Origin: Clostridiales bacterium
GTDB taxonomy: Bacteria; Bacillota; Clostridia; Christensenellales; UBA1242
Direction: 5' to 3'
Length of the DNA stretch: 64,000 bases
Assembly: GCA_015069395.1 (NCBI GenBank)
Contig: SVIR01000005.1
Span: forward strand, 4,788 to 68,787
A program made the position numbers and the translations under genes. The notes below the pieces were generated by a model, which saw nothing but the letters and a program-made list of their open reading frames with translations, was not told the DNA's origin and searched no databases. The stretch's first letter is position 1. The number at the start of each line of letters is the position of its first letter. Shown one piece after another: positions 1 through 19,257 of this stretch.

Positions 1-2905
1 TGCTAGCAGCATAATTTCCATATACAGTTGCAGTTAATGTATTTACATTTGAAAAAAGTGAAGAACTTGTATACGCATATCCTTGTGTCATATTTCCAGC
101 TAAAACTGCTCCTGCACCAAGAATTTTGTGACTTGCAGTTATTCTTGTCGCATTTTGACCATATACATTCCAAGTCGAAGGATGGTTCTCTAAACTAACA
201 CCAACATTTGATGCCCTCCATCTTATTGGATCACATTTGAACCAATATGTAGCATTTGCACTAAATGTTACGCCATCAATCGTTACGGCCTTTGCTGCTT
301 TTACTGGCACATATGTTCCACCAGTGCTGCTGTAAGTGTATGCCTGCAAAGTTTGATTTGAAGAACCGTTGTTGTACTTGATCGTATATGCCGATGTCAA
401 TTGTGATGTTGTTGCACTATTTAAGCTTGAATTCAACGAACTTCCCACATATGTTTGTGGATATTGTCCACTTTCAAAATAGAAATAGTTTTGTCCAAAA
501 TCTGCTGCAAATTGCAAGGAGTCTCTTCCGGTATTCACAGAACTATCTTTCTGATACTTGATTGGGACATAGTGCGTAGATCCCGTCGCATAACCAGAAA
601 TGTCATATACGATACTATAATATCCACTTTCGTATGCTTCATAGCCAGAATACCAATAAAAATAATCAGAATCGTAGTTGTTGTAAGGCTCTATATACCC
701 CTCACTTTCGTCTATATATCCAAAAACAGCATCGTCACAACTCACTTCTGAATCAAGATAAATATGAAATGTCAAAGTCTTGTCTGTTGCTTGCTTAGTG
801 AAATAGAAATAAGTAAATGCTGCACCGTCATGTTGGCCATAAATTTGGCTTTCATATAGACCTGCATCATTCACAGCAAAGTCATTGTCATTGTAGTTTG
901 ATATGTATGTATCTGTTCTATCATTTCCATATTTTAATGGATTTGTGTTCTTTCTTAAGTAAATATAAATTGATGCAGATGTAGTGCTAGTAGATATACT
1001 AAGAGAATAACTTGGAGATTGCACCGAAGTCGTATATGAAGGGGTTGTTGCTGTTGTAATATCGACTAGAGTATATCCTGATGGAAGATTCATACTATAA
1101 ATTGAAAAAGTGCTATTTCGAGAAACATTTGTAAACTGTAAAGATGCTGTTATCGTCGCAGTTTCACTACTTACTCCAGATTGCTGGACTGCAGCATTTG
1201 AAGTTGTGTTGGGAGCGTAATAATAATACCGGATAGTCGACGTGACGGCACTATTGGACCACGTTGTCCCATCAGTGGAGGTCTTTTGATAAATGGTAAC
1301 CGTCGCAGAAAGAGGTCTCCATTTTGCATATAAAGTCTCATTTCCCGTTGTTGTTTTTGTTGTTGATGTTGTTACTTGTGTTGAATATCCACTCTTAAAC
1401 CAACCTACAAATGTGTATCCTGTTCTTACAACGTTTGTTGGAACTCCGTATGTGCTATCAAATGCAACTGTTATTGATGTAATCGCTGTTCCACTTGAGT
1501 TGTATGCTGTTCCACTGTTTGTTGAAAGTGTAACAGTGTATGAAATTGGTGTCCATTGCGCATATAGGCTTCTGCTAGATGCTGTATAATTTGTTGTAGA
1601 AGAAGTTATCTGACTTCCACCACTTGTAGCAGTGTACCACCCCTTAAATGTATAACCCGTTCTTGTTGGAGTTGGCAATGTGCCATAAGTAGATGCATAA
1701 GTGATAGATTTATAAGCATATGTAGTTAAACTAGAATATGAATAACTATAAGAAGAGAGGTTTGAAGAACTAAAAGTCCCTCCTTGAACATAAAAATAGT
1801 TTGTATAAGAACTTGCCGACCATTGTGCATACAGAGTGTGTCTTGCAGAGTTTGTACATAATGTGCTTGCTGTTACTCTTGAGCCACCACTTGTTGCTGT
1901 ATACCACCCTGAAAAAGAATATCCTGTTCTTGTAGGACTGTAACCCGGCAAATCATAATAACAACCACTAGATGCATAAGGGGTTTCTGTATATACATAT
2001 CTCCTTGCAGTACTTAAAAGTTCTTGAGCTGCAGATGCCAATGTTGCAGAATAGATATGGGTGTGTTCCATTGATGTATCTATTTGATTTTGCATACGCT
2101 CTGCCGAACCACCATAATAATATGTTGATCCGTCATAAGTTATAGACCCATTATAACCATATCGGTTTGAAGTATTATATGCAGTATAATACGACACAGC
2201 ACTTGAATCTGTCGATACTACCAAAGCCCCTCCCCAACCTTCTTCTGTTGTCGCATATCCAACATATTTGTATGCAGATCCAGAATAAGACGGAGTATAA
2301 AAATTTCTGCCACCTAAAGTGCACAAAGTTCTACTATAAGTAGTACAATTTTGCGAAGAGCTCTGCGAACCCGTGAATGACCCATTGTATGCATCATAGG
2401 TCACCGTCGTAACACCAGGACCCTCGCGACAAGAAATCAGCCAGTCGCTCGTCCTATCGCCAGAGCCTATCTTAACCCAAATTTCTTTAAATGTCGTACT
2501 ATAACCACTTCCAGTGTGGTCCGACCAACAATCATGCTCATAGGTGTAATTATATGCATACCAACTTCTCATTCTTACTATATCCCCGCTGGTAAAAGTA
2601 AAAGAGCTATAGTTTGATCCCGAATCCGGAGTACAGTTTGAATTTTCTCTAGTATACAAAGTATATTTGTGTGATCCATTAACATAAATATACAATCTAT
2701 CATCAGTAGTAATGCCCAAATATAAGATCCTTCTAGTGACTTGCACCCCAACTTTTTCGTCTTCAGGATTTTCTGTTTCGCCCTCTTCAGAGAAACCACC
2801 TTTTGTTTCTGTGCCAATAGAATTGTCAACAAGAACCACGGTGCCACTAATAGTACACCCCAGCCCCAACAAAATCATTAAAATTGCAATAAGATACTTT
2901 TTCAT
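1..2905 (-). CDS. secreted Flg_new (Listeria-Bacteroides type) repeat surface protein, paralog A; 3' end lies beyond the window edge
   Basis: Own minus-strand translation from ATG at 2905..2903 gives the signal-like N-terminus MKKYLIAILMILLGLGCTISG. Repeats TGYTFKGWYTATSGG and TGYTFVGWFKSG are present. The C-terminal part is collinear with the 3000..6440 product (YWFKCDPIRWRA, KILGAGAVL, GYAYTSSSLFSNVN). It is absent from the ORF track because no stop codon lies inside the window. Confidence 0.8.
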   Translation of the reverse strand, partial: MKKYLIAILMILLGLGCTISGTVVLVDNSIGTETKGGFSEEGETENPEDEKVGVQVTRRILYLGITTDDRLYIYVNGSHKYTLYTRENSNCTPDSGSNYSSFTFTSGDIVRMRSWYAYNYTYEHDCWSDHTGSGYSTTFKEIWVKIGSGDRTSDWLISCREGPGVTTVTYDAYNGSFTGSQSSSQNCTTYSRTLCTLGGRNFYTPSYSGSAYKYVGYATTEEGWGGALVVSTDSSAVSYYTAYNTSNRYGYNGSITYDGSTYYYGGSAERMQNQIDTSMEHTHIYSATLASAAQELLSTARRYVYTETPYASSGCYYDLPGYSPTRTGYSFSGWYTATSGGSRVTASTLCTNSARHTLYAQWSASSYTNYFYVQGGTFSSSNLSSYSYSYSSLTTYAYKSITYASTYGTLPTPTRTGYTFKGWYTATSGGSQITSSTTNYTASSRSLYAQWTPISYTVTLSTNSGTAYNSSGTAITSITVAFDSTYGVPTNVVRTGYTFVGWFKSGYSTQVTTSTTKTTTGNETLYAKWRPLSATVTIYQKTSTDGTTWSNSAVTSTIRYYYYAPNTTSNAAVQQSGVSSETATITASLQFTNVSRNSTFSIYSMNLPSGYTLVDITTATTPSYTTSVQSPSYSLSISTSTTSASIYIYLRKNTNPLKYGNDRTDTYISNYNDNDFAVNDAGLYESQIYGQHDGAAFTYFYFTKQATDKTLTFHIYLDSEVSCDDAVFGYIDESEGYIEPYNNYDSDYFYWYSGYEAYESGYYSIVYDISGYATGSTHYVPIKYQKDSSVNTGRDSLQFAADFGQNYFYFESGQYPQTYVGSSLNSSLNSATTSQLTSAYTIKYNNGSSNQTLQAYTYSSTGGTYVPVKAAKAVTIDGVTFSANATYWFKCDPIRWRASNVGVSLENHPSTWNVYGQNATRITASHKILGAGAVLAGNMTQGYAYTSSSLFSNVNTLTATVYGNYAAS

Positions 2906-2958
2906 ATTTTTATTATATACATAAAATCAGTTTTTCTCAAAACGATTTGCCCCTCCTT
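2902..2958 (-). promoter_or_regulatory. conserved 5' leader of paralog A: either SD + 12-codon uORF (MRKTDFMYIIKI) ending in an ATGA overlap with the main start, or a sigmaA promoter TTGAGA-17-TATAAT placed 6 nt before the ATG (leaderless)
   Basis: Minus strand reads AAGGAGGGGCAAATCGTT TTG AGA AAA ACT GAT TTT ATG TAT ATA ATA AAA ATA TGA, where the final ATGA contains the main ATG (2905). There is no SD directly before the main ATG. The same architecture occurs at 6437..6488. Confidence 0.5.
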
Positions 2959-2967
2959 TTCAAAGAA

Positions 2968-3000
2968 ACAAAAAAAGACGATATAAAAATCGTCTTTTTT
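2968..3000 (-). terminator. rho-independent terminator of the 3000..6440 gene
   Basis: Hairpin agacgat(2976-2982)/atcgtct(2989-2995) with a 6-nt loop. It is flanked by an A-run and a T-run, and on the minus strand the stem is followed by a U-tract. Confidence 0.75.
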
Positions 3001-6000
3001 TAAACTCTCATACCTTTTGACATATGAACAGCCAAACGATATCCATTCATTTTGTTTGCCCATAAGTTGCACGTCTTTCCACTTGCATTAATTCCTCTCA
3101 TTGAATTTATGTTTGATCCCAAGTTTCTTAACAAATATTCTCCCGTTTCAGTTGTCGATGTTTTGCCTAAAAGTAATGCTGAGAATGTCGTATATGAAGC
3201 CTGATAATTTGTTAAATTATCGTCTAAATTTGCTTCTCCTGCAACCATTACTGAAGCTGTAACATTTGCACTTGAAACCCCAACTTGACTAGAAGTACCT
3301 GTAAAAGTTTCACAAGACCAACTTGCTGATTTTGCGTAACTACCATATACCGTGGCAGTCAAAGAATTTACATTTGAATAAAGCGAAGAGCTTGTATATG
3401 CATATCCTTGAGACATTTTTCCATTTAAAACTGCTCCTGCTCCCAAAATCTTGTGGCTTACAACGGTAAAGTTTGAAACAATCTGCCCATAATTTGCCCA
3501 CTTGCTTGGACTTGTGCCTGAAGATGCGCCAAAATCAGAAACTCTCCATTTGATTGGCTCACTCTTAAACCAATATTTGCTTCCCGAAGAGAATGTTACT
3601 CCATCGATTGTAACCGTCTTTGGTGCTGTAACTTGTACATATGTTGTTCCATTATATGTATATGCATTCAATGTTTTGTTTGTTGAGCCATCATTGTATT
3701 TGATTGTATATACCACACTTCCCAACTGTGATGCAACCAAACCGTTAAGGGTTGTATTCATTGAGCTTCCTACATAGCTTTGTGGATATTGTCCATCTTC
3801 AAAATACCAATAGCCCGTTCCAAAGTCTGGTTTAAACTGCAATGAGTCGTTATTACTATGAACAGATCCGTCTTTTCTATATTTTATATAAATATAGTGT
3901 GACGAGTTGTTTGCCAAAGAAGATATATCATATGTTACTGTTTGAACTGTAGCTTTTGATTCAGAAGAACTAAACTTTTTCTTTACATTGGTTGTATCTG
4001 CAGTATTGCTTAAGGCCAATGTCGTATCAATATTACTTAAAATTCCATAGTCACAACAAGGTTCGCCATAATTTATACAATTCATTGTCAAAGTTGTTTG
4101 TCCTGCTTTTTTTGTAAAGTTGAATTTTGTCAGAGAATAACTGCTATTGACTCCTTGGTTTGAGCTTTCGTAATAACCAGAACTATTCAATGTAAATCCA
4201 TATGTCACCCCAGAAATAGCCTCTGTAGAATATGTTACATTATCCTCTCCCCATTTTATTGGGTTTTGTACTTTTGTCAACCACAAGTTGATATATTCTG
4301 TCTGCGACGAAGTTGATATGGAAATATATCCACTCGTCACTTTTGTCGAGCTTCCACTCGGGGCAGACGCCGAAGATCCACTGTTTATACCATACACAAC
4401 ATAATCTGTTGGAACTGATTTTATTGTTATACTCGCAGAATGTCCTCTAGCAAAACTGCCTAAAGAAGTTTGCCCTGTCACAGAAACAGTCCCTGAGTTT
4501 GAGGTGACTGCATCGCCGCCATAGTAATAATCGTCCACATTAGATTCCGAGCCTGTGTCTCCCGATTTTGTAATTGAAATGGTACCCGATGTCAGAGTGT
4601 TCCACGTTGACCCGTCAGTAGTATAATATGGCGTTATATATAAAGTATTGTTGTAGGGGACCCAAACCTCAAAGAGTTCGCCGCCTCCGGCATAATCCCA
4701 AGTCGAATCCATCGTAAGAACTTCACCTGAATTATATGGATCACCCCAACCATAGAAATAGCATCCTGTCTTGCTGATTTCCATATACTCAAAATAGTCC
4801 AGATAACCCCACTCATCACTATAAGCCTCTGCCTCCCACAAAGAAGCTCCGTATGCGACTTGAATATAAGAGATTTGGTCTCCATATATTGATGCACTGG
4901 ATTGATTATAGTCCATATCATTATCGTATAAATAAACCGTATATGTATTTGGCAACCAATAAGCATAGAGCGTTGTGTTTCCTGCCGTGTTGTATGTATA
5001 AGAATAGTTGCAACGCTTATAGCTTGACAAACTCGTTGAAGAAGTGCTCCAATATGCTAAATAGTGTCCGGTTTTAGTGAAAGTAGTGTTTGGTTTTGTG
5101 GTATAACTAGATCCATATGTAACAGATTGTGTAACGGCTGAACCCGATCCTCCATTTGGTTGATATGTAATTGTATAAGAATTTGCTGTCCATTGAGCAT
5201 ACAATGTGATATTGTCACTGCCGATGTTCGAAACGATTGTGCTGCCCGTTACTTTTGTTCCACCACTTGTTGCTGTGTACCAGCCAGCAAATCTATATCC
5301 ATCTCTTTTTGGATCAAACATAGGAGTAGACAAATAACCTGAGGCCGGCATATCCAAATAAACATACGTAGATCCATATGTAACAAACCTCCGTGCAGCC
5401 TCTTCAAGAGTCGCATCCATATAATGAGTATAGTCCTTTATAGTATCAAAGCCCCCAGATAGCCTCATACATTCTCCAGCCCCGCCATAATAATAGGTAT
5501 ATCCATTATAGGTAAATGTACCATCATATCCATAACGCCCTGAAGGATTGTATGCCGTATACCATTGCATATTAGAATCTCTCGAAACAACCAATGCTCC
5601 AGACCAAGACTCTCGTGTGGTCGCCCACCCCCTGTATCTTGGGTAACTTAGAGTTTGCGCTGGGATATAAAAATTTCTTCCTCCAATACAACACAATGTA
5701 GTAGAAGCCGAGGATGTATTAGCTGTAACATCCGATGCCGATGAACTTACAAATGTGCCATTGTTTGATCTAAACGTAACAGTCCTTTCGTCGGCAGTAG
5801 AATCGTTCATAATAAGAACTCTGCTCCTAACCGAAGTTGTGCCCACTTTAAAATACAAAGATTTATATGACATGAGGGGTGAATCAGAAGAATAAAGATC
5901 GTGAGTAAACCAATAATTTCCATAAAAATGATCAGTAAATTGTATAATATCTCCTGAATTAAACGTAAATGAAGTATAATTTGAACTGCCTGAATAATCC

Positions 6001-6440
6001 GGATTTGAATCACAAGCCAACAATTCGTGTGTCAAGGTGCCATTTACATAAATACGAAGCCAGTCGTTTGTATATCTGCCTGAATAGCAAATGCTCATAG
6101 TCAACTTGCCTTCAACAAGTTCTGCTTTTGCATTTACATCTCCTTGTCCAGAGACACCTTCGGCAGCATCCAACTCTGCTTTCACTTCAGCAAAAGATTT
6201 TTGATTAACCAATCTGCCTGGCGCACAATTTGGATCAGTGTACTCTGTAACATCAGGGACGATAAAATTTTCGTTGTTGTTTTCTTCTTCAGGAGAATCT
6301 TCTAAAGACTGATCGGGAGTCTCTTGAGAGGCCCCTTCGTTTGATGTTGATTGAGGATAAAGCGACAATACAGTTGTTCCACCTATTGTGCAACCCAATC
6401 CAAACAAAATCATAAAAATTGCAACAAGATATCTTTTCAT
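3000..6440 (-). CDS. secreted surface protein, paralog B, with Flg_new repeats and a DUF6273-like C-terminus
   Basis: 1146-aa ORF with N-terminal signal MKRYLVAIFMILFGLGCTIGG. Flg_new-type repeats include GYRFAGWYTATSGGTKV..LYAQW and TGHYLAYWST..LYAYW. The C-terminal region has YWFKSEPIKWRV and GYRLAVHM, which resemble DUF6273 as I recall it (family assignment from memory). Confidence 0.8.
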   Translation of the reverse strand: MKRYLVAIFMILFGLGCTIGGTTVLSLYPQSTSNEGASQETPDQSLEDSPEEENNNENFIVPDVTEYTDPNCAPGRLVNQKSFAEVKAELDAAEGVSGQGDVNAKAELVEGKLTMSICYSGRYTNDWLRIYVNGTLTHELLACDSNPDYSGSSNYTSFTFNSGDIIQFTDHFYGNYWFTHDLYSSDSPLMSYKSLYFKVGTTSVRSRVLIMNDSTADERTVTFRSNNGTFVSSSASDVTANTSSASTTLCCIGGRNFYIPAQTLSYPRYRGWATTRESWSGALVVSRDSNMQWYTAYNPSGRYGYDGTFTYNGYTYYYGGAGECMRLSGGFDTIKDYTHYMDATLEEAARRFVTYGSTYVYLDMPASGYLSTPMFDPKRDGYRFAGWYTATSGGTKVTGSTIVSNIGSDNITLYAQWTANSYTITYQPNGGSGSAVTQSVTYGSSYTTKPNTTFTKTGHYLAYWSTSSTSLSSYKRCNYSYTYNTAGNTTLYAYWLPNTYTVYLYDNDMDYNQSSASIYGDQISYIQVAYGASLWEAEAYSDEWGYLDYFEYMEISKTGCYFYGWGDPYNSGEVLTMDSTWDYAGGGELFEVWVPYNNTLYITPYYTTDGSTWNTLTSGTISITKSGDTGSESNVDDYYYGGDAVTSNSGTVSVTGQTSLGSFARGHSASITIKSVPTDYVVYGINSGSSASAPSGSSTKVTSGYISISTSSQTEYINLWLTKVQNPIKWGEDNVTYSTEAISGVTYGFTLNSSGYYESSNQGVNSSYSLTKFNFTKKAGQTTLTMNCINYGEPCCDYGILSNIDTTLALSNTADTTNVKKKFSSSESKATVQTVTYDISSLANNSSHYIYIKYRKDGSVHSNNDSLQFKPDFGTGYWYFEDGQYPQSYVGSSMNTTLNGLVASQLGSVVYTIKYNDGSTNKTLNAYTYNGTTYVQVTAPKTVTIDGVTFSSGSKYWFKSEPIKWRVSDFGASSGTSPSKWANYGQIVSNFTVVSHKILGAGAVLNGKMSQGYAYTSSSLYSNVNSLTATVYGSYAKSASWSCETFTGTSSQVGVSSANVTASVMVAGEANLDDNLTNYQASYTTFSALLLGKTSTTETGEYLLRNLGSNINSMRGINASGKTCNLWANKMNGYRLAVHMSKGMRV

Positions 6441-6488
6441 ATGTATATTATATACATAAATTCAGTTTTTTTCAAAACGATTCCTCCT
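6437..6488 (-). promoter_or_regulatory. conserved 5' leader of paralog B: either AGGAGG SD + 12-codon uORF (MKKTEFMYIIYI) ending in an ATGA overlap, or sigmaA promoter TTGAAA-17-TATAAT-6-ATG (leaderless)
   Basis: Minus strand reads GCAGGAGGAATCGTT TTG AAA AAA ACT GAA TTT ATG TAT ATA ATA TAC ATA TGA. The TGA overlaps the main ATG (6440). TTGAAA lies at 6475..6470 and TATAAT at 6452..6447. Confidence 0.5.
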
Positions 6489-6510
6489 GCTGGCACAAAA
6501 ATTTTTCAAA

Positions 6511-6540
6511 AAAACAAAAAGCATCAAGTTTGATGCCTTT
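6511..6540 (-). terminator. rho-independent terminator after ftsQ
   Basis: Stem gcatca(6521-6526)/tgatgc(6531-6536). On the minus strand it is followed by TTTTTGTTTTTTT. Confidence 0.65.
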
Positions 6541-7507
6541 ATTTTTTTACAAATGAATAATATATGTCGTTTTCTGAACGATTTATATGTTCGGTCAAAG
6601 TGAAATTGTCAATTTTGATAATACAATCAGAAATCAAGTTCTTGCTCAATGGCACTTTTTTTGTAGGTTCACCGATTTCTTCATTAAAAAGCACATACTC
6701 GCCACTTTCCGTCTCTTCAACATAAATAATCTGACCGTTTTTGTCTATCAAATTTCCAAAACCGTCTAAGTCGTGAGAATATATAGTGCTTTCAACAGCA
6801 AACATCTTTTGCACTTTGCTCGCAAAAGCAAAATCCGGGTTGTTTATTTGATATTCTTTTCCCTCAAAAGTAACAAGCTTCATAGAAATATATTCTTTTG
6901 ATGTAATTTCGTCTTGATATTTTGAAAGGCTTATTTTTTTAAACTTGCCAATTTGCTGGGCAAGACTGCGATTGTTTTGCAACATTACACTATAAAATTT
7001 TTTCAAACATTCTTCTTCAACTGACAAAAAGTCTCCGATTTGCACCTCAGAACTGGTTATTGTCAAGCCTTCAACTAAAATAGGGTTTTCAGTTTCGCTT
7101 TCAAACGAATCCAAGACCTTTAAAACTCTTAAATCTCTGTCACAAACGAGATATTGAGAATTTATTTTTATTGCAAAAAGCTCTTCTCTTTCAGCAATAT
7201 GCACAACAAATTTGTTTGGAAAAATAGTTTCAATATTTATCACTCTTATATAAGCAAAATTTTCATTTTTTTTTGCTTTTTCGTTTATTTTGTCGATTGA
7301 TTTTTTCTTTCCTTCAAACAAAACACTTGCACCAAGCCTAAATTCGCCTGCTTCAACAATTTCTTCTTCTGTTACTGTCAAATTTTTGGTAGTAGATTTA
7401 AAATTTATAGAAACTGAAGAAAGCCCAAAAAGAGTCCAAAAAGAGATTAGCACTGACGCCAAAACAACTATAGCTATAGAAATTGTAATAATCCACTTTT
7501 TGCTCAT
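6539..7507 (-). CDS. ftsQ: cell division protein FtsQ/DivIB
   Basis: Single N-terminal TM helix (WIITISIAIVVLASVLISFW) followed by a POTRA-like region (FAYIRVINIETIFPNKFVVHIAEREELFAI). It occupies the terminal position of the dcw cluster. Confidence 0.7.
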   Translation of the reverse strand: MSKKWIITISIAIVVLASVLISFWTLFGLSSVSINFKSTTKNLTVTEEEIVEAGEFRLGASVLFEGKKKSIDKINEKAKKNENFAYIRVINIETIFPNKFVVHIAEREELFAIKINSQYLVCDRDLRVLKVLDSFESETENPILVEGLTITSSEVQIGDFLSVEEECLKKFYSVMLQNNRSLAQQIGKFKKISLSKYQDEITSKEYISMKLVTFEGKEYQINNPDFAFASKVQKMFAVESTIYSHDLDGFGNLIDKNGQIIYVEETESGEYVLFNEEIGEPTKKVPLSKNLISDCIIKIDNFTLTEHINRSENDIYYSFVKK

Positions 7508-7510
7508 TTG

Positions 7511-8764
7511 TCAAATCCTTTTTATGTCGGCCCCCAAAAGACTATATTTTTCTTCAATCTTTTCATAGCCTCTATCAATAAATTCAATGTTATGAACCGT
7601 AGTATATCCCTCTGCTTTCAGTCCTGCCAAAACCAGTGAAGCACCAGCACGCAAATCTGTAGCAAAAACATCTGCACCATAGAGGGTTTTGACCCCTTTT
7701 ATGAGTGCCGTTTGCCCTTTGACGACTATATCTGCCCCCATTTTTTTGAGTTCCATAACCTGCCCAAAACGGTTTTCAAACATAGTTTCATAAATCACAC
7801 TTGCACCTTCACAAACCGTTTGCAGAGCCATCATTTGTGCTTGCAAATCAGTTGGAAAAAACGGATAAGGCATTGTTTTTATCTCAGAGATTGAAGAAAG
7901 CCTTTTGTCTGCTCTCAATCTTATTTTATCACCAAGCACATCAATTTGGCAAGCAGTTTGATTAAGAAGAGCGAGCAAACATTCGTTATGCTCTGCTATT
8001 GCCCCATCCAACAAAACATCTCCACCACACATCGCACCTGCAAGAAGATAAGTTCCGGCAATTATACGGTCTGACATAACGTCATATGTGCAACCGTGCA
8101 ATTTTTTTACTCCTCGTATTACAATTTGATCACAACCAGCACCTCGAATGTCTCCACCCATCGTGTTGATAAAGTTTTGCAAGTCTTCAATCTCAGGCTC
8201 TCTTGCAACATTTTTCAATATTGTTTCGCCCTCAATCAATGTTGCACAAAGCATAAGACTCTCAGTCGCTCCCACACTTGGAAAATCCAAAACAATTTCT
8301 GCCGAGTGCAAGTTTTCTCCAAAGCAATAAATATAGCCGTGCTTTTCAATTATCTTAGCTCCCAAACTTCGCAATCCTTTCAAATGAATGTCAATAGGGC
8401 GAGCTCCAATGTTGCACCCACCAGGGTATGCGACAACACAACTTCTAAACTTTGCCAACAACGGTCCAAGCAAAAAAATAGAAGCCCTGACCTTTTGAGT
8501 CAGCTCATGGGTTATTTTTGCATTGTTAGAGTGTTTTGTATCTATGTAAAGGGATGCTTTGTCGCAATTTATTTTACACCCTAAAACTTCTAAGATTTCA
8601 GTCATAGCCTTCAAATCTTCTATATGAGTAAAATTGTTTAGGCAAAAATCGTCCTCAGCAAGCAAACATCCTGCCATGATTGGCAAAAAAGAATTTTTCG
8701 AACCGTCAACTCTCACTTCTCCAAAAAGTTTTCGTCCACCGTTTATTAAAAGTTTGTTTTCCAT
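7511..8764 (-). CDS. murA: UDP-N-acetylglucosamine 1-carboxyvinyltransferase
   Basis: 417 aa. N-terminus LINGGRKLFGEVRVDGSKNSFLPIMAG; active-site Cys context YPGGCNIGARPIDIHL. Confidence 0.93.
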   Translation of the reverse strand: MENKLLINGGRKLFGEVRVDGSKNSFLPIMAGCLLAEDDFCLNNFTHIEDLKAMTEILEVLGCKINCDKASLYIDTKHSNNAKITHELTQKVRASIFLLGPLLAKFRSCVVAYPGGCNIGARPIDIHLKGLRSLGAKIIEKHGYIYCFGENLHSAEIVLDFPSVGATESLMLCATLIEGETILKNVAREPEIEDLQNFINTMGGDIRGAGCDQIVIRGVKKLHGCTYDVMSDRIIAGTYLLAGAMCGGDVLLDGAIAEHNECLLALLNQTACQIDVLGDKIRLRADKRLSSISEIKTMPYPFFPTDLQAQMMALQTVCEGASVIYETMFENRFGQVMELKKMGADIVVKGQTALIKGVKTLYGADVFATDLRAGASLVLAGLKAEGYTTVHNIEFIDRGYEKIEEKYSLLGADIKRI

Positions 8765-8914
8765 AATTGCTTTTATGTCTGCAACAAAAAAAATGTTATG
8801 TTTTCTATGCTAACAAGCGTTTCTTTATTAAAAAAGAGCGAAACCCTTTCCACTCTTTTGTTTTTAACTGATTTTTTGAACCCTTTAATCAAATTTACAA
8901 TGAGGATTCATTTC

Positions 8915-9006
8915 TGCATGACTTCGCCCATCAAACAGCAACAGACGTTCCTCCACTCGAAATAAATGGCAGTGGCAAGCCTGTCGAGGAATACTTCCTA
9001 TTACAA
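8915..9006 (-). pseudogene. frameshifted duplicate fragment of the ftsW 3' coding end
   Basis: 8933..9006 aligns to 9754..9828 (inside intact ftsW) with a few substitutions and a 1-nt indel (cctgtcgagg vs cctgttggagg). Weaker similarity continues to about 8915. Confidence 0.75.
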
Positions 9007-9029
9007 TGAATTGTGTAAATAAATATTAA

Positions 9030-9584
9030 TCATTTCTTTACGTATAATCCAAATGTGGTTACACTATCTCTATCCTCAACTTTAGCATATAGTAAATGTA
9101 AGCCATTCAAAACACCTGCCTGCTTACCACATACAACGGCATACTCATTGTTAAAAGTTCCATTTGCTAAATATTTAGCGCCCAAGGCAGTATCCTCTAT
9201 TTCAACAAAGTTTATGTTACCAAAAATTTTATTTAGATTTGTTGCTGATTGTTTTAACGCCTGTTCGTGAGATGCAATAAATTTAATATCATTCGCCTTT
9301 ATTTGTTTATTTTTAACAAATACATAATGATGAATTTGCATTCTAATTTCTGCTATTTTATTTAAATCTAAAGTTAATGCAGTCTTTGTTTCTTGTACAA
9401 GACCTCCTATGTTGTTTTTGATTGCCATTACACCATAATCAATTTCACCATTTTTCAAAGCTCTAACAACGTTTTTAGAAGAAATTAGTGGAACTAATTC
9501 TGCCCCGTAATCAAAGGTTTCTATAAATTGTCGTGCTGCAATTTCACTATTGCTTGCCCAATCCCCTTGAAATCCAATTTTCAT
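9030..9584 (-). CDS. prephenate dehydratase (PDT) domain protein without an ACT domain
   Basis: 184 aa. IGFQGDWASNSEIAA resembles the PDT N-terminus (YQG..GA.SE.AA). Also IASHEQALKQ (SHPQAL..C-like) and TTF near the C-terminus (NxTRF-like). Confidence 0.6.
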   Translation of the reverse strand: MKIGFQGDWASNSEIAARQFIETFDYGAELVPLISSKNVVRALKNGEIDYGVMAIKNNIGGLVQETKTALTLDLNKIAEIRMQIHHYVFVKNKQIKANDIKFIASHEQALKQSATNLNKIFGNINFVEIEDTALGAKYLANGTFNNEYAVVCGKQAGVLNGLHLLYAKVEDRDSVTTFGLYVKK

Positions 9585-9642
9585 AATTTTCTATCCCTAT
9601 GTATTTTAGTAATATCAAACATATTTATTGTATCATAAAAAT

Positions 9643-9677
9643 AAAAAAAAGTATACAAATTGTTTGCATTTGTATAC
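9643..9677 (-). terminator. rho-independent terminator after ftsW
   Basis: Perfect 10-bp stem gtatacaaat(9651-9660)/atttgtatac(9668-9677). The A-run at 9643-9650 gives a U-tract on the minus strand. Confidence 0.8.
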
Positions 9678-9691
9678 ACTTAAATAAAAAA

Positions 9692-10801
9692 TTAAATCTT
9701 ACTTTTTCTACTCTGTCTAGCGACTGAAAGCGCAATGCCTACAGCACCCATAAAAACAGCAACAGACGTTCCTCCACTTGAAATAAATGGCAGTGGCAAG
9801 CCTGTTGGAGGAATACTGCCTGTCACAACAGCAACATTCAACAACATTTGAACTCCTATTACCAAAGCAACTCCACAAGCCAACAAACATCCGAACCTAT
9901 CCTTTGCGTTTAGACCGATTTTAAAGAGTAATATTACCAAAATCGCATAAACCAACAGAAGTCCAACACAACCGACAAAGCCAATTTCTTCTCCAATAAT
10001 TGAAAAAATAAAGTCTGATTCTGCAAATGGAAGAAAAAGATACTTTTGTCTTGATTGAAACAATCCAACTCCAAACCAACCTCCATTTCCTAGACTATAA
10101 AGAGATTGAATCAGTTGAAACCCCTCGCCTTGTGGAGATGCCCAAGGATCTATAAAAGCAAAAAGTCTTTTCAAGCGATAGGGTTCTGCCAATATTAAAA
10201 CGGGTACTGCTACAACAGCACAACAAGAAAACAAAATGGTATGTTTTTTGCTCATTCCTCCTATTATGAGCATAAACAAAGTAACTATAGCAATACACAT
10301 CGTAACCGACATACTCGGCTCGATAATTACAAGCACGCACAAGAGTCCAGCCACACAAAGAGGAGGAAGCAAACCCTTAAAAGTTTTTATTTTGTCGTGG
10401 TTGTCCGAAAGATAACAAGCCAAAAACAAGACCAGCGCAAACTTTGCAATTTCTGATGGTTGAATGGAAATTCCAAAAAAACTCACCCATCGGTTTGCCC
10501 CATAGCTTTGAACTCCAAATCCTGGCACAAAAACCAAAACAAGCAAAATTACACTAATTGCCAAAATCCAATATTTAAACTTTTTGAGAATATGGTAATC
10601 TAAAAAATAGAAAAAAAACAATGCGAATATGCCTAAAACAACTCCAAAAAGTTGTTTAAACAAAAAGAAATATTCGTTCCCATATCGATATTCTGCCGAA
10701 TAACTACTTGCACTGTAAACCATCAAACATCCAAAAGCCACGAGAAAAAAAACCACAAGCACGGTCCAGATTTCTTTTCTTCTTAAACTGCTTATTCTCA
10801 T
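9692..10801 (-). CDS. ftsW: SEDS-family peptidoglycan glycosyltransferase FtsW/SpoVE
   Basis: 369 aa, polytopic. Motifs QPSEIAKFALVLFLA and PTGLPLPFISSGGTS. Sits downstream of murD with a 4-nt overlap. Confidence 0.88.
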   Translation of the reverse strand: MRISSLRRKEIWTVLVVFFLVAFGCLMVYSASSYSAEYRYGNEYFFLFKQLFGVVLGIFALFFFYFLDYHILKKFKYWILAISVILLVLVFVPGFGVQSYGANRWVSFFGISIQPSEIAKFALVLFLACYLSDNHDKIKTFKGLLPPLCVAGLLCVLVIIEPSMSVTMCIAIVTLFMLIIGGMSKKHTILFSCCAVVAVPVLILAEPYRLKRLFAFIDPWASPQGEGFQLIQSLYSLGNGGWFGVGLFQSRQKYLFLPFAESDFIFSIIGEEIGFVGCVGLLLVYAILVILLFKIGLNAKDRFGCLLACGVALVIGVQMLLNVAVVTGSIPPTGLPLPFISSGGTSVAVFMGAVGIALSVARQSRKSKI

Positions 10802-15798: not shown

Positions 15799-17202
15799 TT
15801 ATCGGTAATTATCCGGCAAATCATTCTCAAACAAAACCACATCCCCCGCCTTCACCACTTTTTTCAAAATTTCCTTTTGTTCTTGTCGAGTGTTTGCGAA
15901 ATATATTTCTCTTCCAAACTCTTTTGCCCCTTCAAAAAGAGCTTCTTTATTTGTTTTATTCATAATCACAAAAATATCTGCGTATTCAAAAATCTTTTTT
16001 CCTATTTTTAAATTTGTTTCATATTGCTCTTTGCCAAGTTCGACTACCCCAGGAGAAACAACTATCTTTCTACCCTCAAAACCTTTCAAAACTTCCAAGG
16101 CTTGACAAAAACCATCGAAGTTGCTGTTGTAAGAGTCGTCAATAACAGTTGCAACATCACTTTTGATAATCTCAAGACGGTGCGCAACTTGTTGGACATT
16201 TTTTATCCCCCTCAAAATATTGTAAACGTTTTCCCCTAGCAAATATGCCATTGTTGATGCTACAACTATATTGTCAATATTTGCTTGCCCCAAAAGTTTT
16301 GTCTTGCAATGAAAAACCTTTTTATCCAACACCATATCAAATTCAGAACCTTCTGAATTTGTTGTTATATTTTTTGCATAAGCAAAACTTCCATTATCAC
16401 AAACCAAAAACTTTTTTCGTTCAAACCTTTCAAAAAGACTTTTAGTAGATTTGTTTGTTCCATTAAAAACTACAAACTGTTTGGCACTTTCACACAATTC
16501 AAATTTTGTAGATTCTATATTTTCAATTGTTCCAAAGGTCTCTAAATGACATTTTCCTATCGGAGTTATTATTCCAAAATCAACCCCAACAAAATCAGCC
16601 AAAAATTTTATATCCCCTTTATGCCTTGCCCCCAACTCTACGACAAAAATATCGTCCGTTTCTTTCAAGTTTTCTAAAATCGTTTTGCAGACTCCCATTG
16701 GAGTATTAAAACTTTTTGGAGTTGCACAAACATCAAACTCTTCGCTTAAAATTTGATATAAAATATTTTTGGTAGTAGTCTTTCCAAAACTGCCCGTAAT
16801 GGCAATCTTTTTGCACTTCATTTTTGCAAGTTTATTTTTGGCTTTTTTTATAAATTGTTTTTTTATAAATTCTTCAAAAGGCATAGCAATTAAAAACGAC
16901 AATACTATTTCAATAGGTCTGATAAAAATAAATATAACAACAATTAAAATAACAAAAGCATTGTTTAAAGAGTAAAAAATCAAAAAAAACAACCAAAAAT
17001 TAAGAAAAAAATCAAGAAATATCAATCTTTTTATTCTTTTTGTATAATTCAGCCTGTTTTTATCGAAAGACACAAACTGAAATTTTACTATTTTTTTTAT
17101 ATAATTTTTTAGTTTGTATCCTTCAAGTTGAAAAGATTTTAAGAAAAATAATCCTACAACGCTTGAGACAAACGTCAACAAAAAACTATAAAGTGCATAC
17201 AT
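15799..17202 (-). CDS. murF: UDP-MurNAc-tripeptide--D-Ala-D-Ala ligase with an atypical N-terminal membrane domain
   Basis: ITGSFGKTTTKN P-loop, IDDSYNSN, VSPGVVELGKE. The first ~130 aa are three or more hydrophobic helices (LYSFLLTFVSSVVGLFFL, FLNFWLFFLIFYSL, VILIVVIFIFI). I prefer the ATG at 17202 (GGAG upstream); the track start is 17217. Confidence 0.8.
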   Translation of the reverse strand: MYALYSFLLTFVSSVVGLFFLKSFQLEGYKLKNYIKKIVKFQFVSFDKNRLNYTKRIKRLIFLDFFLNFWLFFLIFYSLNNAFVILIVVIFIFIRPIEIVLSFLIAMPFEEFIKKQFIKKAKNKLAKMKCKKIAITGSFGKTTTKNILYQILSEEFDVCATPKSFNTPMGVCKTILENLKETDDIFVVELGARHKGDIKFLADFVGVDFGIITPIGKCHLETFGTIENIESTKFELCESAKQFVVFNGTNKSTKSLFERFERKKFLVCDNGSFAYAKNITTNSEGSEFDMVLDKKVFHCKTKLLGQANIDNIVVASTMAYLLGENVYNILRGIKNVQQVAHRLEIIKSDVATVIDDSYNSNFDGFCQALEVLKGFEGRKIVVSPGVVELGKEQYETNLKIGKKIFEYADIFVIMNKTNKEALFEGAKEFGREIYFANTRQEQKEILKKVVKAGDVVLFENDLPDNYR

Positions 17203-17926
17203 AATTTTCTCCGACATTTAAAAATTTTTCCAAGAGCATAACAAACTCAAACTTTCTGTCCAAGAAGCAAAAGTGTCCGGCATCTTTCAATATGACCAAC
17301 TCTGAATTTTTAATTTTTCTATGCAATTTTCTAGCCATATAAAGAGGAGTGTCCACATCTTTTTCTCCAAAGACAATTAGAGTTTTTGCTTTCACAAAAG
17401 GCAGAAATTCGTCTAAATGTGTATTGACTATGCTTATAAAAACCTTCTTCATTTGAGGACTCAAATTTTTATAATCAGAACTGCCATAATTTGAAATATC
17501 TTTTCCAAGTTTTCTTTTCACTTTGTAATCAAAAACCTTCCAACGATACTTTATTCCTCTCTTGGGTTTTAATCCTGCACTATCAATAAGCATAAGTCTA
17601 TCAACCAACTCTTTTTGGAATACGGAGATAATTATTCCAACTCTTCCACCAAAAGAATGCCCTATCAAATTTATTTTTTTTAATTTCAGGTGTTGACATA
17701 GAGATATGACCATATTTGCATATGTAAAAATTGACCACCCTTCAACCTCTCCACTCTGCCCAAACGGAGGAAAATCTATAAACAAACAACTGTCGAGCAA
17801 AACCTCGTTGCAAAAGAGCAAGCTGTTGTGATCGTTTGCCCAACCATGTAAAAATACATTTACAACGGAACTTTCTTTATCGAAAAATTTATAAAAGATT
17901 TCACAATCCCTATATCTATATTTCAT
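17186..17926 (-). CDS. alpha/beta-fold hydrolase
   Basis: 246 aa. HGWANDH near the N-terminus, nucleophile elbow GHSFGG, C-terminal DAGHF. Confidence 0.7.
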   Translation of the reverse strand: MKYRYRDCEIFYKFFDKESSVVNVFLHGWANDHNSLLFCNEVLLDSCLFIDFPPFGQSGEVEGWSIFTYANMVISLCQHLKLKKINLIGHSFGGRVGIIISVFQKELVDRLMLIDSAGLKPKRGIKYRWKVFDYKVKRKLGKDISNYGSSDYKNLSPQMKKVFISIVNTHLDEFLPFVKAKTLIVFGEKDVDTPLYMARKLHRKIKNSELVILKDAGHFCFLDRKFEFVMLLEKFLNVGENYVCTL

Positions 17927-17935
17927 AAAATCATT

Positions 17936-19219
17936 TTATGAAATAAAATTGTTTTTGTGCAAAATCTCTGGCAGATCGCCAGCCCCGACCACAAGCAAAA
18001 CATTTCCTTTCTTTTTAAAACCTTTAAAGAAGTAAGCTAAATCGTCAAAATTTTCGAAATATTTTGCATTTTTGTTGTATTGTTTCACTAAATCGCACAA
18101 AGCCTCTGCAGACACTCCTTGTTCTTCTTTCTCTCTCGCCGAAAAAGTTTTATAGAAAAGTGGAACTTTACAATCTTTAAAAATCTCTATAAATTCTGCG
18201 AGTAACAATTTTGTTCGTGAATATGTATGAGGTTGAAACAACACAATCACATTTTTGCCAATATAAATTTTCTTTGCTGTTTCAACAGCCTTTCTGATTT
18301 CTGTTGGGTGATGCGCATAATCACATACAACAGCATCAAAAAATTTAGATTCCTTTTTTTGAAAACGTTTTTCGACCCCTCTATATTTTTCAAGCCCAGT
18401 TTTGATATCCCTTTCGCTTACTCCCAATTTTTTACAAGCCTGATAAGCATAAATACAATTTTCAATATTTACTTCCTCACATAGATGCAAGCTTAAATCA
18501 AAGACTTTTCGCTTCTTTTCAAACAATGAAAATTCCAAACCTCCGTTAGCTTTATGCTTGATATTCTTTGCTTCTAATTGCCCATAACTATCAATCACGA
18601 TTTTTGACTGTTTTTTAAATCTTTCAAATGACTTCAATTCATTTTCAAAAGTTCTGAAATAATCTAAATGTTCTTTCTCTATATTTGTAACAATTGAAAT
18701 GTAAGGGGCTAAATACAAAAAGTTGTCACAATATTCACAAGCCTCTGTTACAAAATATTTTTTGCCTCCTAAACAAAAGTTTTTTCCATCTTCTATTCTA
18801 AACCCACCCAAATGCAAACTTGGATTAAGCCCCGCAACTTTCAAGATCTCAAAAATCATTGCTGTAACAGTTGTCTTTCCATGTGCCCCAGCCACAGCAA
18901 TAACTTTCTCATAATCTCTTGAAATCTCTCCCAACAACTTTCCTCGACAGATCATTATCTTGTTTTGTTTTTTTGCCAGTTTAAAAATTGGGTTGTCGTC
19001 TTTAATCGCAGAGGAATAAACAATTAAATCTGCATCTTTTACAGCATCTTCGTTTTGCTCAAAATCTACCTTTATACCTGCCTCTTCCAATTGAGATGTC
19101 GCTTTACTCTTGCGCTCGTCATAACCAGAAACAATCTCACCTTTTTCTTTCAAAAACATAGCCAGGGCAGACATAGAAATTCCACCTATTCCCAACATAT
19201 AATAGTTCATATTCATAAA
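17936..19219 (-). CDS. murC: UDP-N-acetylmuramate--L-alanine ligase
   Basis: MLGIGGISMSALA N-terminal motif; VAGAHGKTTVTAM P-loop. The start is ambiguous (TTG 19231, ATG 19219/19213) and there is no clear SD. Confidence 0.88.
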   Translation of the reverse strand, partial: FMNMNYYMLGIGGISMSALAMFLKEKGEIVSGYDERKSKATSQLEEAGIKVDFEQNEDAVKDADLIVYSSAIKDDNPIFKLAKKQNKIMICRGKLLGEISRDYEKVIAVAGAHGKTTVTAMIFEILKVAGLNPSLHLGGFRIEDGKNFCLGGKKYFVTEACEYCDNFLYLAPYISIVTNIEKEHLDYFRTFENELKSFERFKKQSKIVIDSYGQLEAKNIKHKANGGLEFSLFEKKRKVFDLSLHLCEEVNIENCIYAYQACKKLGVSERDIKTGLEKYRGVEKRFQKKESKFFDAVVCDYAHHPTEIRKAVETAKKIYIGKNVIVLFQPHTYSRTKLLLAEFIEIFKDCKVPLFYKTFSAREKEEQGVSAEALCDLVKQYNKNAKYFENFDDLAYFFKGFKKKGNVLLVVGAGDLPEILHKNNFIS

Positions 19220-19257
19220 TATGCCCAACAAAAATTTTTTGTCTTTTTATCAAAATA

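Follow-up and report, generated by a model that had tools for sequence, protein, structure and literature searches.

A prephenate dehydratase-domain gene between two copies of the ftsW 3′ end: a probable one-unit example of a cassette slot behind ftsW in gut Clostridia

The ftsW–murA interval of the genome under study

The interval between ftsW and murA at positions 8915–9691 of a 64,000-nucleotide stretch of contig SVIR01000005.1 of a Clostridiales bacterium (this whole stretch is called the window throughout, and positions are counted within it) holds a small gene for a prephenate dehydratase (PDT)-domain protein, which is flanked on one side by the intact end of the division gene ftsW and on the other by a second, decayed copy of that same gene end. 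The genome in question (G000; other genomes bear G-numbers, and fetched loci or contigs L-numbers) is 935 kb in size and 96% complete, belongs to a spore-former, a YpeB gene being present within the window, and has congeners whose genus label is probably Ca. Caccovivens. All genes of the locus are on the minus strand: an ftsQ-like gene (6539–7507) is followed along the window by murA, the PDT-only open reading frame (ORF) and a ftsW/spoVE-type SEDS gene (Table 1), with murD, mraY, a Mur ligase gene (probably murE) and ddl further along the same run after ftsW.

The earlier note, which was made from the sequence of the window, had described 8933–9006 as a duplicate of 9754–9828 with a few substitutions and a one-nucleotide deletion, and alignment of 8880–9040 with 9700–9860 bears this out at 92% identity over 75 bp, with five mismatches and a single one-base gap; searches of the whole genome and the relatives’ fetched loci give the same match (E 3.7e-24 and 9e-25), and exactly two copies of the segment exist in the entire genome. 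Weaker similarity extends both ways and, read in the sense of the gene, starts at ATT GTA ATA GG (9007) and fades past ATGGGCGAAGTCATGCAGAAATGA/ATGGGCGAAG (around 8915). Because of two indels, the fragment cannot be translated as FtsW and is a pseudogene; its RNA fold is not significant against shuffled sequences (z 0.31). It is 92% identical to its own ftsW versus 74–89% to the ftsW genes of other species. An assembly artefact is ruled out by a 38-kb contig from another metagenome (L071), in which the order ftsW, PDT gene, fragment and murA is identical, and a decayed second SEDS paralogue is not supported, as most fragments start at or close to codon 325 and the congeners hold one SEDS match each at E<=1e-40. 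The duplicated ftsW end is real.

The unit enclosed by the two copies largely corresponds to what had been claimed for it. A hairpin (9651–9677) with a run of eight U residues (9643–9650) does lie behind ftsW, but calling this terminator strong was an overstatement, as it is moderate by its folding energy, and a consensus terminator scan missed it because of its A+T-rich stem. The extended −10 box of the cassette is likewise present but lacks a good −35 counterpart, and the consensus promoter scan reported no full sigma-70 site there. The 184-aa ORF is indeed a PDT without the ACT domain. It also holds that the window has no murG, which sits at C6:60344–60805; as murA, not murG, is next after ftsW throughout the group, this absence is typical of the lineage.

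Table 1. Coordinates of the features at and around the ftsW 3′ end (window positions)
Feature	Position	Strand	Evidence
ftsW/spoVE-type SEDS gene, intact, 369 aa	9692..10801	(-)	PF01098 E 1.3e-97; TIGR02614 ftsW 366 bits, exceeds cut-off
Intact copy of the repeated segment, codons V325–I369 and stop	9692..9829	(-)	Core encodes VVTGSIPPTGLPLPF..., tail ...ARQSRKSKI and stop
ftsW terminator hairpin GTATACAAAT-GCAAACA-ATTTGTATAC then U8; part of the conserved module	9643..9677	(-)	dG -9.8 kcal/mol, z -2.96
Extended −10 TGATACAAT, the cassette’s own putative promoter element	9624..9632	(-)	Read from the sequence; without a good −35
Cassette cargo: ACT-less PDT-domain protein, 184 aa	9030..9584	(-)	PF00800 E 1.6e-32
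Degenerate junction motif TTTACACAATTC, counterpart of the near-invariant TATAATACAATAACTG	9008..9019	(-)	Listing of the left flanks of fragments
Decayed ftsW 3′ fragment, insertion scar (attR-like)	8915..9007	(-)	92% over 75 bp, E 4e-24; two indels
Second hairpin AAAAGAGTGG...CGCTCTTTTTT with U-run, between fragment and murA	8829..8869	(-)	dG -12 kcal/mol, z -3.25
murA, direct neighbour of ftsW in empty-slot relatives	7511..8764	(-)	TIGR01072 E 3e-151

The same slot in relatives

Relatives show the base state of the interval to be ftsW directly followed by murA, an order found in about 40 congeners with an interval that ranges from ~45 bp to >20 kb; the slot is empty in G071, G072, G008 and G019, whose gaps are roughly 45–85 bp, and the PDT gene is absent from 22 of the 24 congeners searched. 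Together with the closeness of the fragment to its own ftsW, the empty slot of relatives supports the proposal of the earlier note that the PDT cassette was inserted by recombination at the ftsW 3′ end, duplicating the segment. Where that proposal fell short is in treating the insertion as one event, since the same slot is filled by other cassettes in many species.

A survey of 154 congeners with the FtsW C-terminus (the last 45 residues within a 58-aa query, q14 of which corresponds to V325) gave two to seven matches in 20 of the 148 genomes with a match (about 13%). All extra copies in G078, G016, G015 and G005 share the strand of ftsW and lie immediately behind it at a spacing of 0.7–1.3 kb. 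No extra ftsW-like segment was found elsewhere in these four genomes, unlike the scatter over unrelated loci that miniature inverted-repeat transposable elements would show; exact junction motifs (described below) are likewise directly downstream of ftsW in G078 and G016. More distant gut Clostridia also carry cassettes at this position (one to six or more), and metagenome contigs (e.g., L109 and L163) hold arrays of four to six or more units.

Successive fragments are separated by one small ORF, rarely two, and all the cassette ORFs called are co-oriented with ftsW, the ORFs inside one array being mutually unrelated. According to Pfam, the cargo includes GNATs (about a dozen), Ser_hydrolase, HAD, HD and NUDIX proteins, an NMN transporter, IMPase (inositol monophosphatase), an MBL-fold protein, peptidases C26 and S51, alpha/beta hydrolases and Exo_endo_phos, and several cassette proteins have no Pfam match at all. 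Given this recurrence, we consider it probable that 8915–9691 of the window represents a cassette slot at the ftsW 3′ end that is filled by a single unit. Searches of paper full texts turned up no description of such an ftsW-end cassette structure, nor one under the name Caccovivens.

Anatomy of the repeated module

The order of parts within a unit is the cassette ORF, often its own terminator, a junction motif, the ftsW-like segment, a hairpin, a T-run and an extended −10 box with a 5′ UTR, behind which the next ORF begins. The junction motif is near-invariant (ATACAATAACTG followed by ATGTTAA) and falls into two classes, one with TATAATACAATAACTG and the other with (T/C)AGTGCAATAAC(T/A)N. 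The ftsW-like segment lies directly behind it and runs from the codon equivalent to V325 (often ATG or GTG instead) to the stop codon, most fragments beginning at this codon or within a few codons of it. A hairpin made of two TGTATACA boxes with a T-run is present behind the segment at the intact ftsW and most of the fragments shown for G078 and L185, and at the intact ftsW of L143. In front of most cassette ORFs examined stand TGGTATAAT/TGTTATAAT extended −10 boxes, i.e., putative promoters. Every array opens with a module that is none other than the intact ftsW end, and the conserved modules are long (about 250–330 bp). All of these parts are found in G000, where the junction motif is degenerate and the distal fragment decayed. 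The fragment does, therefore, belong to a longer conserved element between genes, a finding that the earlier note would have taken to speak against a duplication had the element been non-coding and unrelated to ftsW, but the module is clearly derived from ftsW.

How specific the junction motif is to these loci can be seen from exact searches. The sequence CAATAACTSRTGKTAA occurs 20 times in 12 of the 154 congeners, just downstream of ftsW wherever the ftsW region was examined, and the 19-mer ATACAATAACTGATGTTAA has 28 exact matches in 185,579 species genomes (one genome per species), 20 of which have an ftsW 3′ fragment behind or beside them; the other eight are in unrelated phyla, without an ftsW fragment, and are consistent with chance expectation. 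The fragment-linked matches include metagenome-assembled genomes (MAGs) labelled Ca. Onthoplasma and “Catabacter sp.”, and the host FtsW at the 19-mer loci (where an intact ftsW is within the fetched locus) is 49–79% identical to that of G000.

Several further details of the modules may be recorded here. A terminator-like hairpin, AAAGAGCAATAAATTTGCTCTTTTTTT, recurs just upstream of many junction motifs behind unrelated cassettes (L062, L063, L054, L067 and L185), so the inter-ORF module may be about 330 bp long; the similar hairpin of G000 (AAAAGAGTGG...CGCTCTTTTTT) is placed after the fragment instead. Some repeats have their ftsW-like segment split right behind the LPLP codons by a structured insert of ~105 nt (GCGTCAAAAC...CCCCACAAATCTCACGATTTGCGGGG...), e.g., at 913–1027, 1767–1871, 3640–3750 and 4520–4630 of L062 (G078:C7, reverse strand) and at 940–1060 of L185, and also in G016 and G021. 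When searched for in G000, G078, G016 and G021, this insert matched only at the array repeats of the last three, and Rfam scans of three arrays returned no family for either the insert or the modules. The likeness of the cassette promoter of G000 (TATGATACAATAAAT followed by ATG) to the junction motif was taken as chance, the other promoters examined being without the ACAATAA part. One ftsW 3′ fragment, at 770–934 of L192, has been called by gene finders as a 54-aa FTSW_RODA_SPOVE protein, and it is probably these repeats that appear as mini-ORFs of this sort in public annotation.

Hybrid gene ends, selection and strain-level differences

Apart from their anatomy and recurrence, the arrays exhibit hybrid ftsW tails, a footprint of selection and a difference of one cassette between near-identical strains. 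The host FtsW of L143 is 56% identical to that of G000, and the two fragments at this locus, both of which carry the exact junction motif, are 59–61% identical to the core of their own ftsW versus 82% and 71% to Caccovivens-type cores. FtsW C-termini differ between species, and the tail RQSRKSKI (followed by the stop) is shared by the intact ftsW of G000 and L143 and by cassette-borne fragments of G078, while being absent from the nearest relatives of G000; this distribution makes the ftsW ends of G000 and L143 look imported along with the trailing hairpin and promoter.

When the uninterrupted fragments (about 37) were compared with the nearest intact ftsW core, the ratio of nonsynonymous to synonymous differences (pN/pS) was 0.00–0.39, with pN of 0.00–0.23 and pS mostly of 0.35–0.8, although this set comprises about half of all fragments and pN is, thus, biased downward. 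As neutral decay at such divergence leaves few open frames, the divergence would seem to have accrued mostly while the segments were working gene ends, or else their function would be tested whenever one of them becomes the end of ftsW.

An identical 191-aa PDT protein is encoded in three contigs, two of which hold a cassette for a 169-aa protein between the PDT and an MBL gene and one of which does not, the indel being bounded by a ~110-bp repeated stretch of tail, hairpin and promoter. Within the species of G000, two ftsW contigs from two other samples both end at window position 9593, 9 nt before the PDT ATG, and the murA contig of one of these samples starts at 8898, just past the fragment, so that the two bases bracket the PDT ORF and the fragment; assemblers end contigs in this way where a stretch is polymorphic or repeated.

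The PDT cargo

The PDT domain of the G000 cassette scores 113 bits in Pfam versus a cut-off of 25, and the protein ends with this domain, having no C-terminal ACT and scoring far below the cut-offs of the NCBIfam equivalogs. No other pheA, which the earlier note had suggested looking for, is there to be found, as this is the only PDT of the genome. No chorismate synthase (PF01264) and no CM_2-type chorismate mutase (PF01817) were detected in the 96%-complete genome (CM_1 and other shikimate-pathway steps were not searched), which leaves the PDT as an orphan enzyme without a visible source of prephenate. The family of such PDT-only proteins (39 metagenome matches and one chorismate mutase-PDT fusion at E<=1e-10) spans 115–202 aa, mostly 182–202 aa, and keeps the QG..S, SHxQAL.Q and DTA motifs, whereas the T-R-F motif is altered: Thr176 and Phe178 are invariant, and Arg is replaced by Thr in most members (TTF). 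Compared with PheA/P-protein, the resemblance, therefore, lies in a domain well above the Pfam threshold and in SHxQAL.Q, DTA and the Thr of T-R-F, and the difference in the missing ACT, the TRF to TTF change and a genome in which neither chorismate synthase nor a CM_2-type mutase was found. The members of this orphan family may be salvage or detoxifying enzymes, and their substrate could be a different one, as the earlier note suggested.

The closest homologues of the PDT (83%, 68% and 61% identity) are all encoded in co-oriented runs of small genes, and the 83% and 61% ones are in arrays with junction motifs and ftsW fragments, the latter being about the fifth cassette behind an ftsW 55% identical to that of G000. 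The cassettes of G000 and of the 83% relative (L185, which has a comparable degenerate junction motif behind its PDT gene) are 86% identical in DNA over a stretch that opens immediately behind the −10 box and closes 8 nt after the stop codon; outside it they have nothing in common, and these limits of the shared DNA mark the bounds of the cassette-specific part. PDT homologues of two congeners, G013 and G007 (42–44% identity), were rejected as slot cargo, as they are located elsewhere in the genome without ftsW modules.

How the arrays might have arisen

Structures of this kind could be produced by reciprocal (Campbell-type) recombination between a cassette-borne ftsW-like segment and the resident ftsW end, whereby the incoming DNA, circular or tandem, would provide a new last part of ftsW together with its terminator hairpin, ftsW would stay intact, and the older ftsW end would be displaced behind the cassette. 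Arrays would then grow as such events recur or as repeats recombine unequally, and recombination of repeat with repeat would also remove cassettes; in G000, the displaced end would have decayed afterwards by its two indels. Both the intermediate and the enzyme are what we infer here: a site-specific recombinase supplied in trans (helper-borne or a host XerS-like one) and RecA-type homologous recombination appear equally conceivable, each at somewhat less than an even chance, and anything else would be unlikely. Tentatively, and again at less than even chances, the arrays might be seen as an integron-like system for gene capture, not described before, in gut Clostridia with reduced genomes, consisting of integrase-less, promoter-bearing single-gene cassettes with a ~60-bp site, a recombinase acting in trans and a replacement FtsW C-terminus.

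Searches for the enzyme and for a site known from other systems gave the following. No PF00589 match was found in the ftsW–murA intervals of G003, G052, G070, G067 and G078. The genome under study has a single tyrosine recombinase, XerS-like and on another contig, and G109 and G121 have arrays, yet one XerS-like tyrosine recombinase and no serine recombinase; no serine recombinase was found in G016 either. The 331-aa gene after the arrays of G078 and G016 was rejected as a recombinase, its sequence being judged asparagine synthetase A-like, and it is absent from G000. No integrative and conjugative element (ICE) or integrative and mobilizable element bearing a cognate integrase and the same att site was present in the intervals searched in a sample of genomes. 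Fuzzy searches with the Bacillus subtilis, Escherichia coli, difSL and difH sites revealed no convincing dif match, and GC skew is negative across the whole window, i.e., without a switch at the locus. Separately, a palindromic motif, TATTATGTCATAAATAATACTATATTTAGTATTA, is located ~60–100 nt upstream of the xerS-like gene in L196, L197, L199 and L201 (G109, G121, G015 and G023) and, by analogy with the streptococcal XerS/difSL arrangement, may be the dif site of the lineage; no motif of this form was seen ahead of the xerS-like gene of G000, and a Xer link through this motif was rejected, as it gave only noise-level matches to array modules.

One possible explanation, tentative and a little below even chances, is site-specific: an att-type site, made up of the junction motif together with ~40 bp at the start of the ftsW-like segment, would undergo recombination with the ftsW core through a recombinase whose gene lies elsewhere, be it on a helper plasmid, phage or ICE or in the host as its single XerS-like enzyme. 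The cassettes would then be integrase-less cis-mobilisable units, comparable to integron cassettes or to the CIMEs considered below. The near-invariant left boundary speaks for it, and so does the identity of the 19-nt motif across hosts with FtsW only 49–80% identical; repeats of a foreign type are present in a host whose own core, at ~60% identity, has diverged too far for RecA to exchange the two efficiently; all units point the same way and hold one gene each, and isolated matches of 36–42 nt span the junction motif and the beginning of the core. This explanation has to contend with the absence of a recombinase in or near the arrays, the G109 and G121 arrays with their lone XerS-like enzyme, a motif upstream of the xerS-like gene that is unlike the array modules, the distance of the locus from any GC-skew switch and the ends of the mapped strain indel, which are off the junction motif; no inverted-arm core site was evident.

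The explanation by homology alone, to which we assign the same somewhat less than even probability, would have one ancient duplication make the module and RecA-type unequal recombination grow, shrink and spread the arrays, with replacement of the whole ftsW–murA interval via flanking core genes after DNA uptake as a second route of spread. What argues for it most, in our view, is the lack of a local recombinase; the length of the conserved modules, an indel that ends within a 110-bp repeated stretch, hybrid ftsW tails that cross over near the gene end, variable start points of fragments and vertically inherited cassettes also fit. Homology alone does not, however, account for dozens of unrelated ORFs placed exactly between promoter and junction motif, for a junction motif that is better conserved than its surroundings across distant hosts, or for the open frames with their low pN/pS.

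Several observations count against the reading of the interval as a slot filled by recombination, or set limits to it. Neither enzyme option accounts for the way in which new ORFs come to lie between promoter and junction motif, and no recombinase gene was seen in or beside any array examined. Some fragments begin later than the rest (q17–q23 and q44–47), and the sole strain-level indel mapped ends in the tail, hairpin and promoter instead of at the junction motif, so that a single fixed crossover point is not established. The contig of the 68% PDT homologue has a same-strand run of small genes with neither a junction motif nor an ftsW fragment, and G021 is an exception to the clustering behind ftsW, with three matches on its ftsW contig and two more on contig C12, where one junction motif is located as well. 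Turnover can also be slow, as several cassettes are shared vertically (e.g., the first cassette of L087 and L109, at 76% DNA identity), and the selection footprint has the downward bias mentioned above.

It is improbable that the fragment is functional in itself, whether as a mini-protein of the last FtsW helix translated from the ATG/GTG at the junction or as a regulatory RNA: many fragments elsewhere do start with ATG or GTG behind a TATAAT-like junction motif and have an open frame under purifying selection, but the copy in G000 has two frameshifts and no significant fold, a whole class opens with GTC/GTT instead of a start codon, the 105-nt insert interrupts several fragments, and Rfam offers no match. 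Less probable still, to the point of being barely credible, is a one-off accident, i.e., a single illegitimate PDT insertion that duplicated ~90 bp of ftsW and belongs to no wider system, as the lone cassette and lone decayed fragment of G000 might suggest, since the same architecture with other cargo is found in 19 other congeners and in other genera and the G000 cassette has the hairpin, −10 box, degenerate junction motif and ftsW tail of the family.

Comparison with known systems

The structure shares traits with each of the systems compared below and fails a defining feature of each, there being no integrase, attC or toxin logic and, within the units, repeats with junction motifs. Accretion of ICEs and cis-mobilizable elements (CIMEs) at the 3′ end of fda is known from Streptococcus thermophilus, and, as in such elements and in tRNA-gene islands and the tycheposons of Prochlorococcus, the insert discussed here is flanked by a duplicated target 3′ end, the target is kept intact by an element-borne replacement end, successive insertions push older ones inward with partial repeats, and the genomes are streamlined. 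Tycheposons are flanked by partial tRNAs, and new arrivals push older ones into the island (bioRxiv 10.1101/2020.12.28.424599). Unlike these elements, the target here is the essential division gene ftsW, the units are single genes of 0.6–1.3 kb with their own putative promoter, no integrase is present in the units (by cargo Pfam) or in neighbouring DNA, and the repeat is a ~135-bp coding segment with purifying selection. As for the crossover point, the left boundary is codon 325 in most fragments, with some later starts, and the one mapped indel is in the tail/hairpin region.

Integrons and clusters of attC sites lacking integrases (CALINs) resemble the ftsW arrays in having co-oriented, mostly single-ORF cassettes parted by a conserved site-like element and a cargo in which GNATs, small enzymes and proteins without a known function abound, and CALIN arrays also have no adjacent integrase. 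The differences are the lack of intI, direct gene-end copies as repeats in place of attC hairpins (the G000 fragment having no significant fold), a junction motif that does not fit the attC core GTTRRRY, and anchoring in the end of a host gene instead of an attI site; integron cassettes are, moreover, mostly promoterless, whereas each cassette examined here has an extended −10 box.

Like the orphan C-terminal modules of cdiA and rhs, the arrays behind ftsW hold displaced 3′ gene fragments with one conserved starting point, which pile up behind the full-length gene, have a small accessory gene each and can recombine with the full-length gene again. They are unlike these modules in that the accessory ORF varies in place of a toxin domain; FtsW does not belong to the polymorphic toxins, and no logic of cognate pairs is evident. 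Minimal mobile elements of Neisseria are hotspots between conserved core genes that are exchanged by flanking homologous recombination; they too have a fixed core-gene interval (here, ftsW to murA) with varying accessory genes and no mobility genes, but not the internal repeats of the left gene end with a junction motif per unit. Integrative mobile elements exploiting Xer recombination at dif differ as well, as no dif-like match was found here and GC skew is negative over the 64-kb window.

Significance

The group concerned consists of uncultured spore-formers of human and animal guts with genomes of ~0.8–1.3 Mb and few recognisable mobile elements, in which one fixed site behind an essential division gene serves as a store of interchangeable small enzymes. 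If cassettes do move by a defined site, this would constitute a second, independently evolved integron-like logic, in which a mobile element has to bring along a working part of a protein essential to its host, and this requirement would account for the selection observed on the repeats; the ftsW end would then serve as a ready insertion site, with portable promoter and terminator modules, for organisms without genetic tools. The repeats also break metagenome assemblies at the locus and are, thus, relevant to the annotation of MAGs. As each cassette carries a terminator-like hairpin, murA–ftsQ may need a promoter of their own wherever the slot is occupied.

Other observations at the slot and in the window

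The ftsW–murA interval of G053 (9.6 kb; L050, G053:C5:7300–27000) contains, at 2900–9235, ORFs resembling ftsA, ftsZ, spoIIGA, sigE and sigG, tentative labels based on N-terminal sequences and lengths, not on a family search; elsewhere among the relatives, the ftsA–sigG-like block comes after ftsQ. The intervals of G067 and G070 are similarly long (11.5 and 16.8 kb), and the slot may also be a breakpoint for larger rearrangements. Behind ftsQ, the window has two very large ORFs (3000–6440 and 2–2905, minus strand; 1146 aa and at least 968 aa), the first of which has Listeria-Bacteroides repeat domains (PF09479), suggesting a surface protein at the place held by ftsA–ftsZ in many relatives. Further along the window, an alpha/beta hydrolase gene (17186–17926, minus strand; EstV-like, below the cut-off) is situated between murC (17936–19231) and murF (15799–17217).

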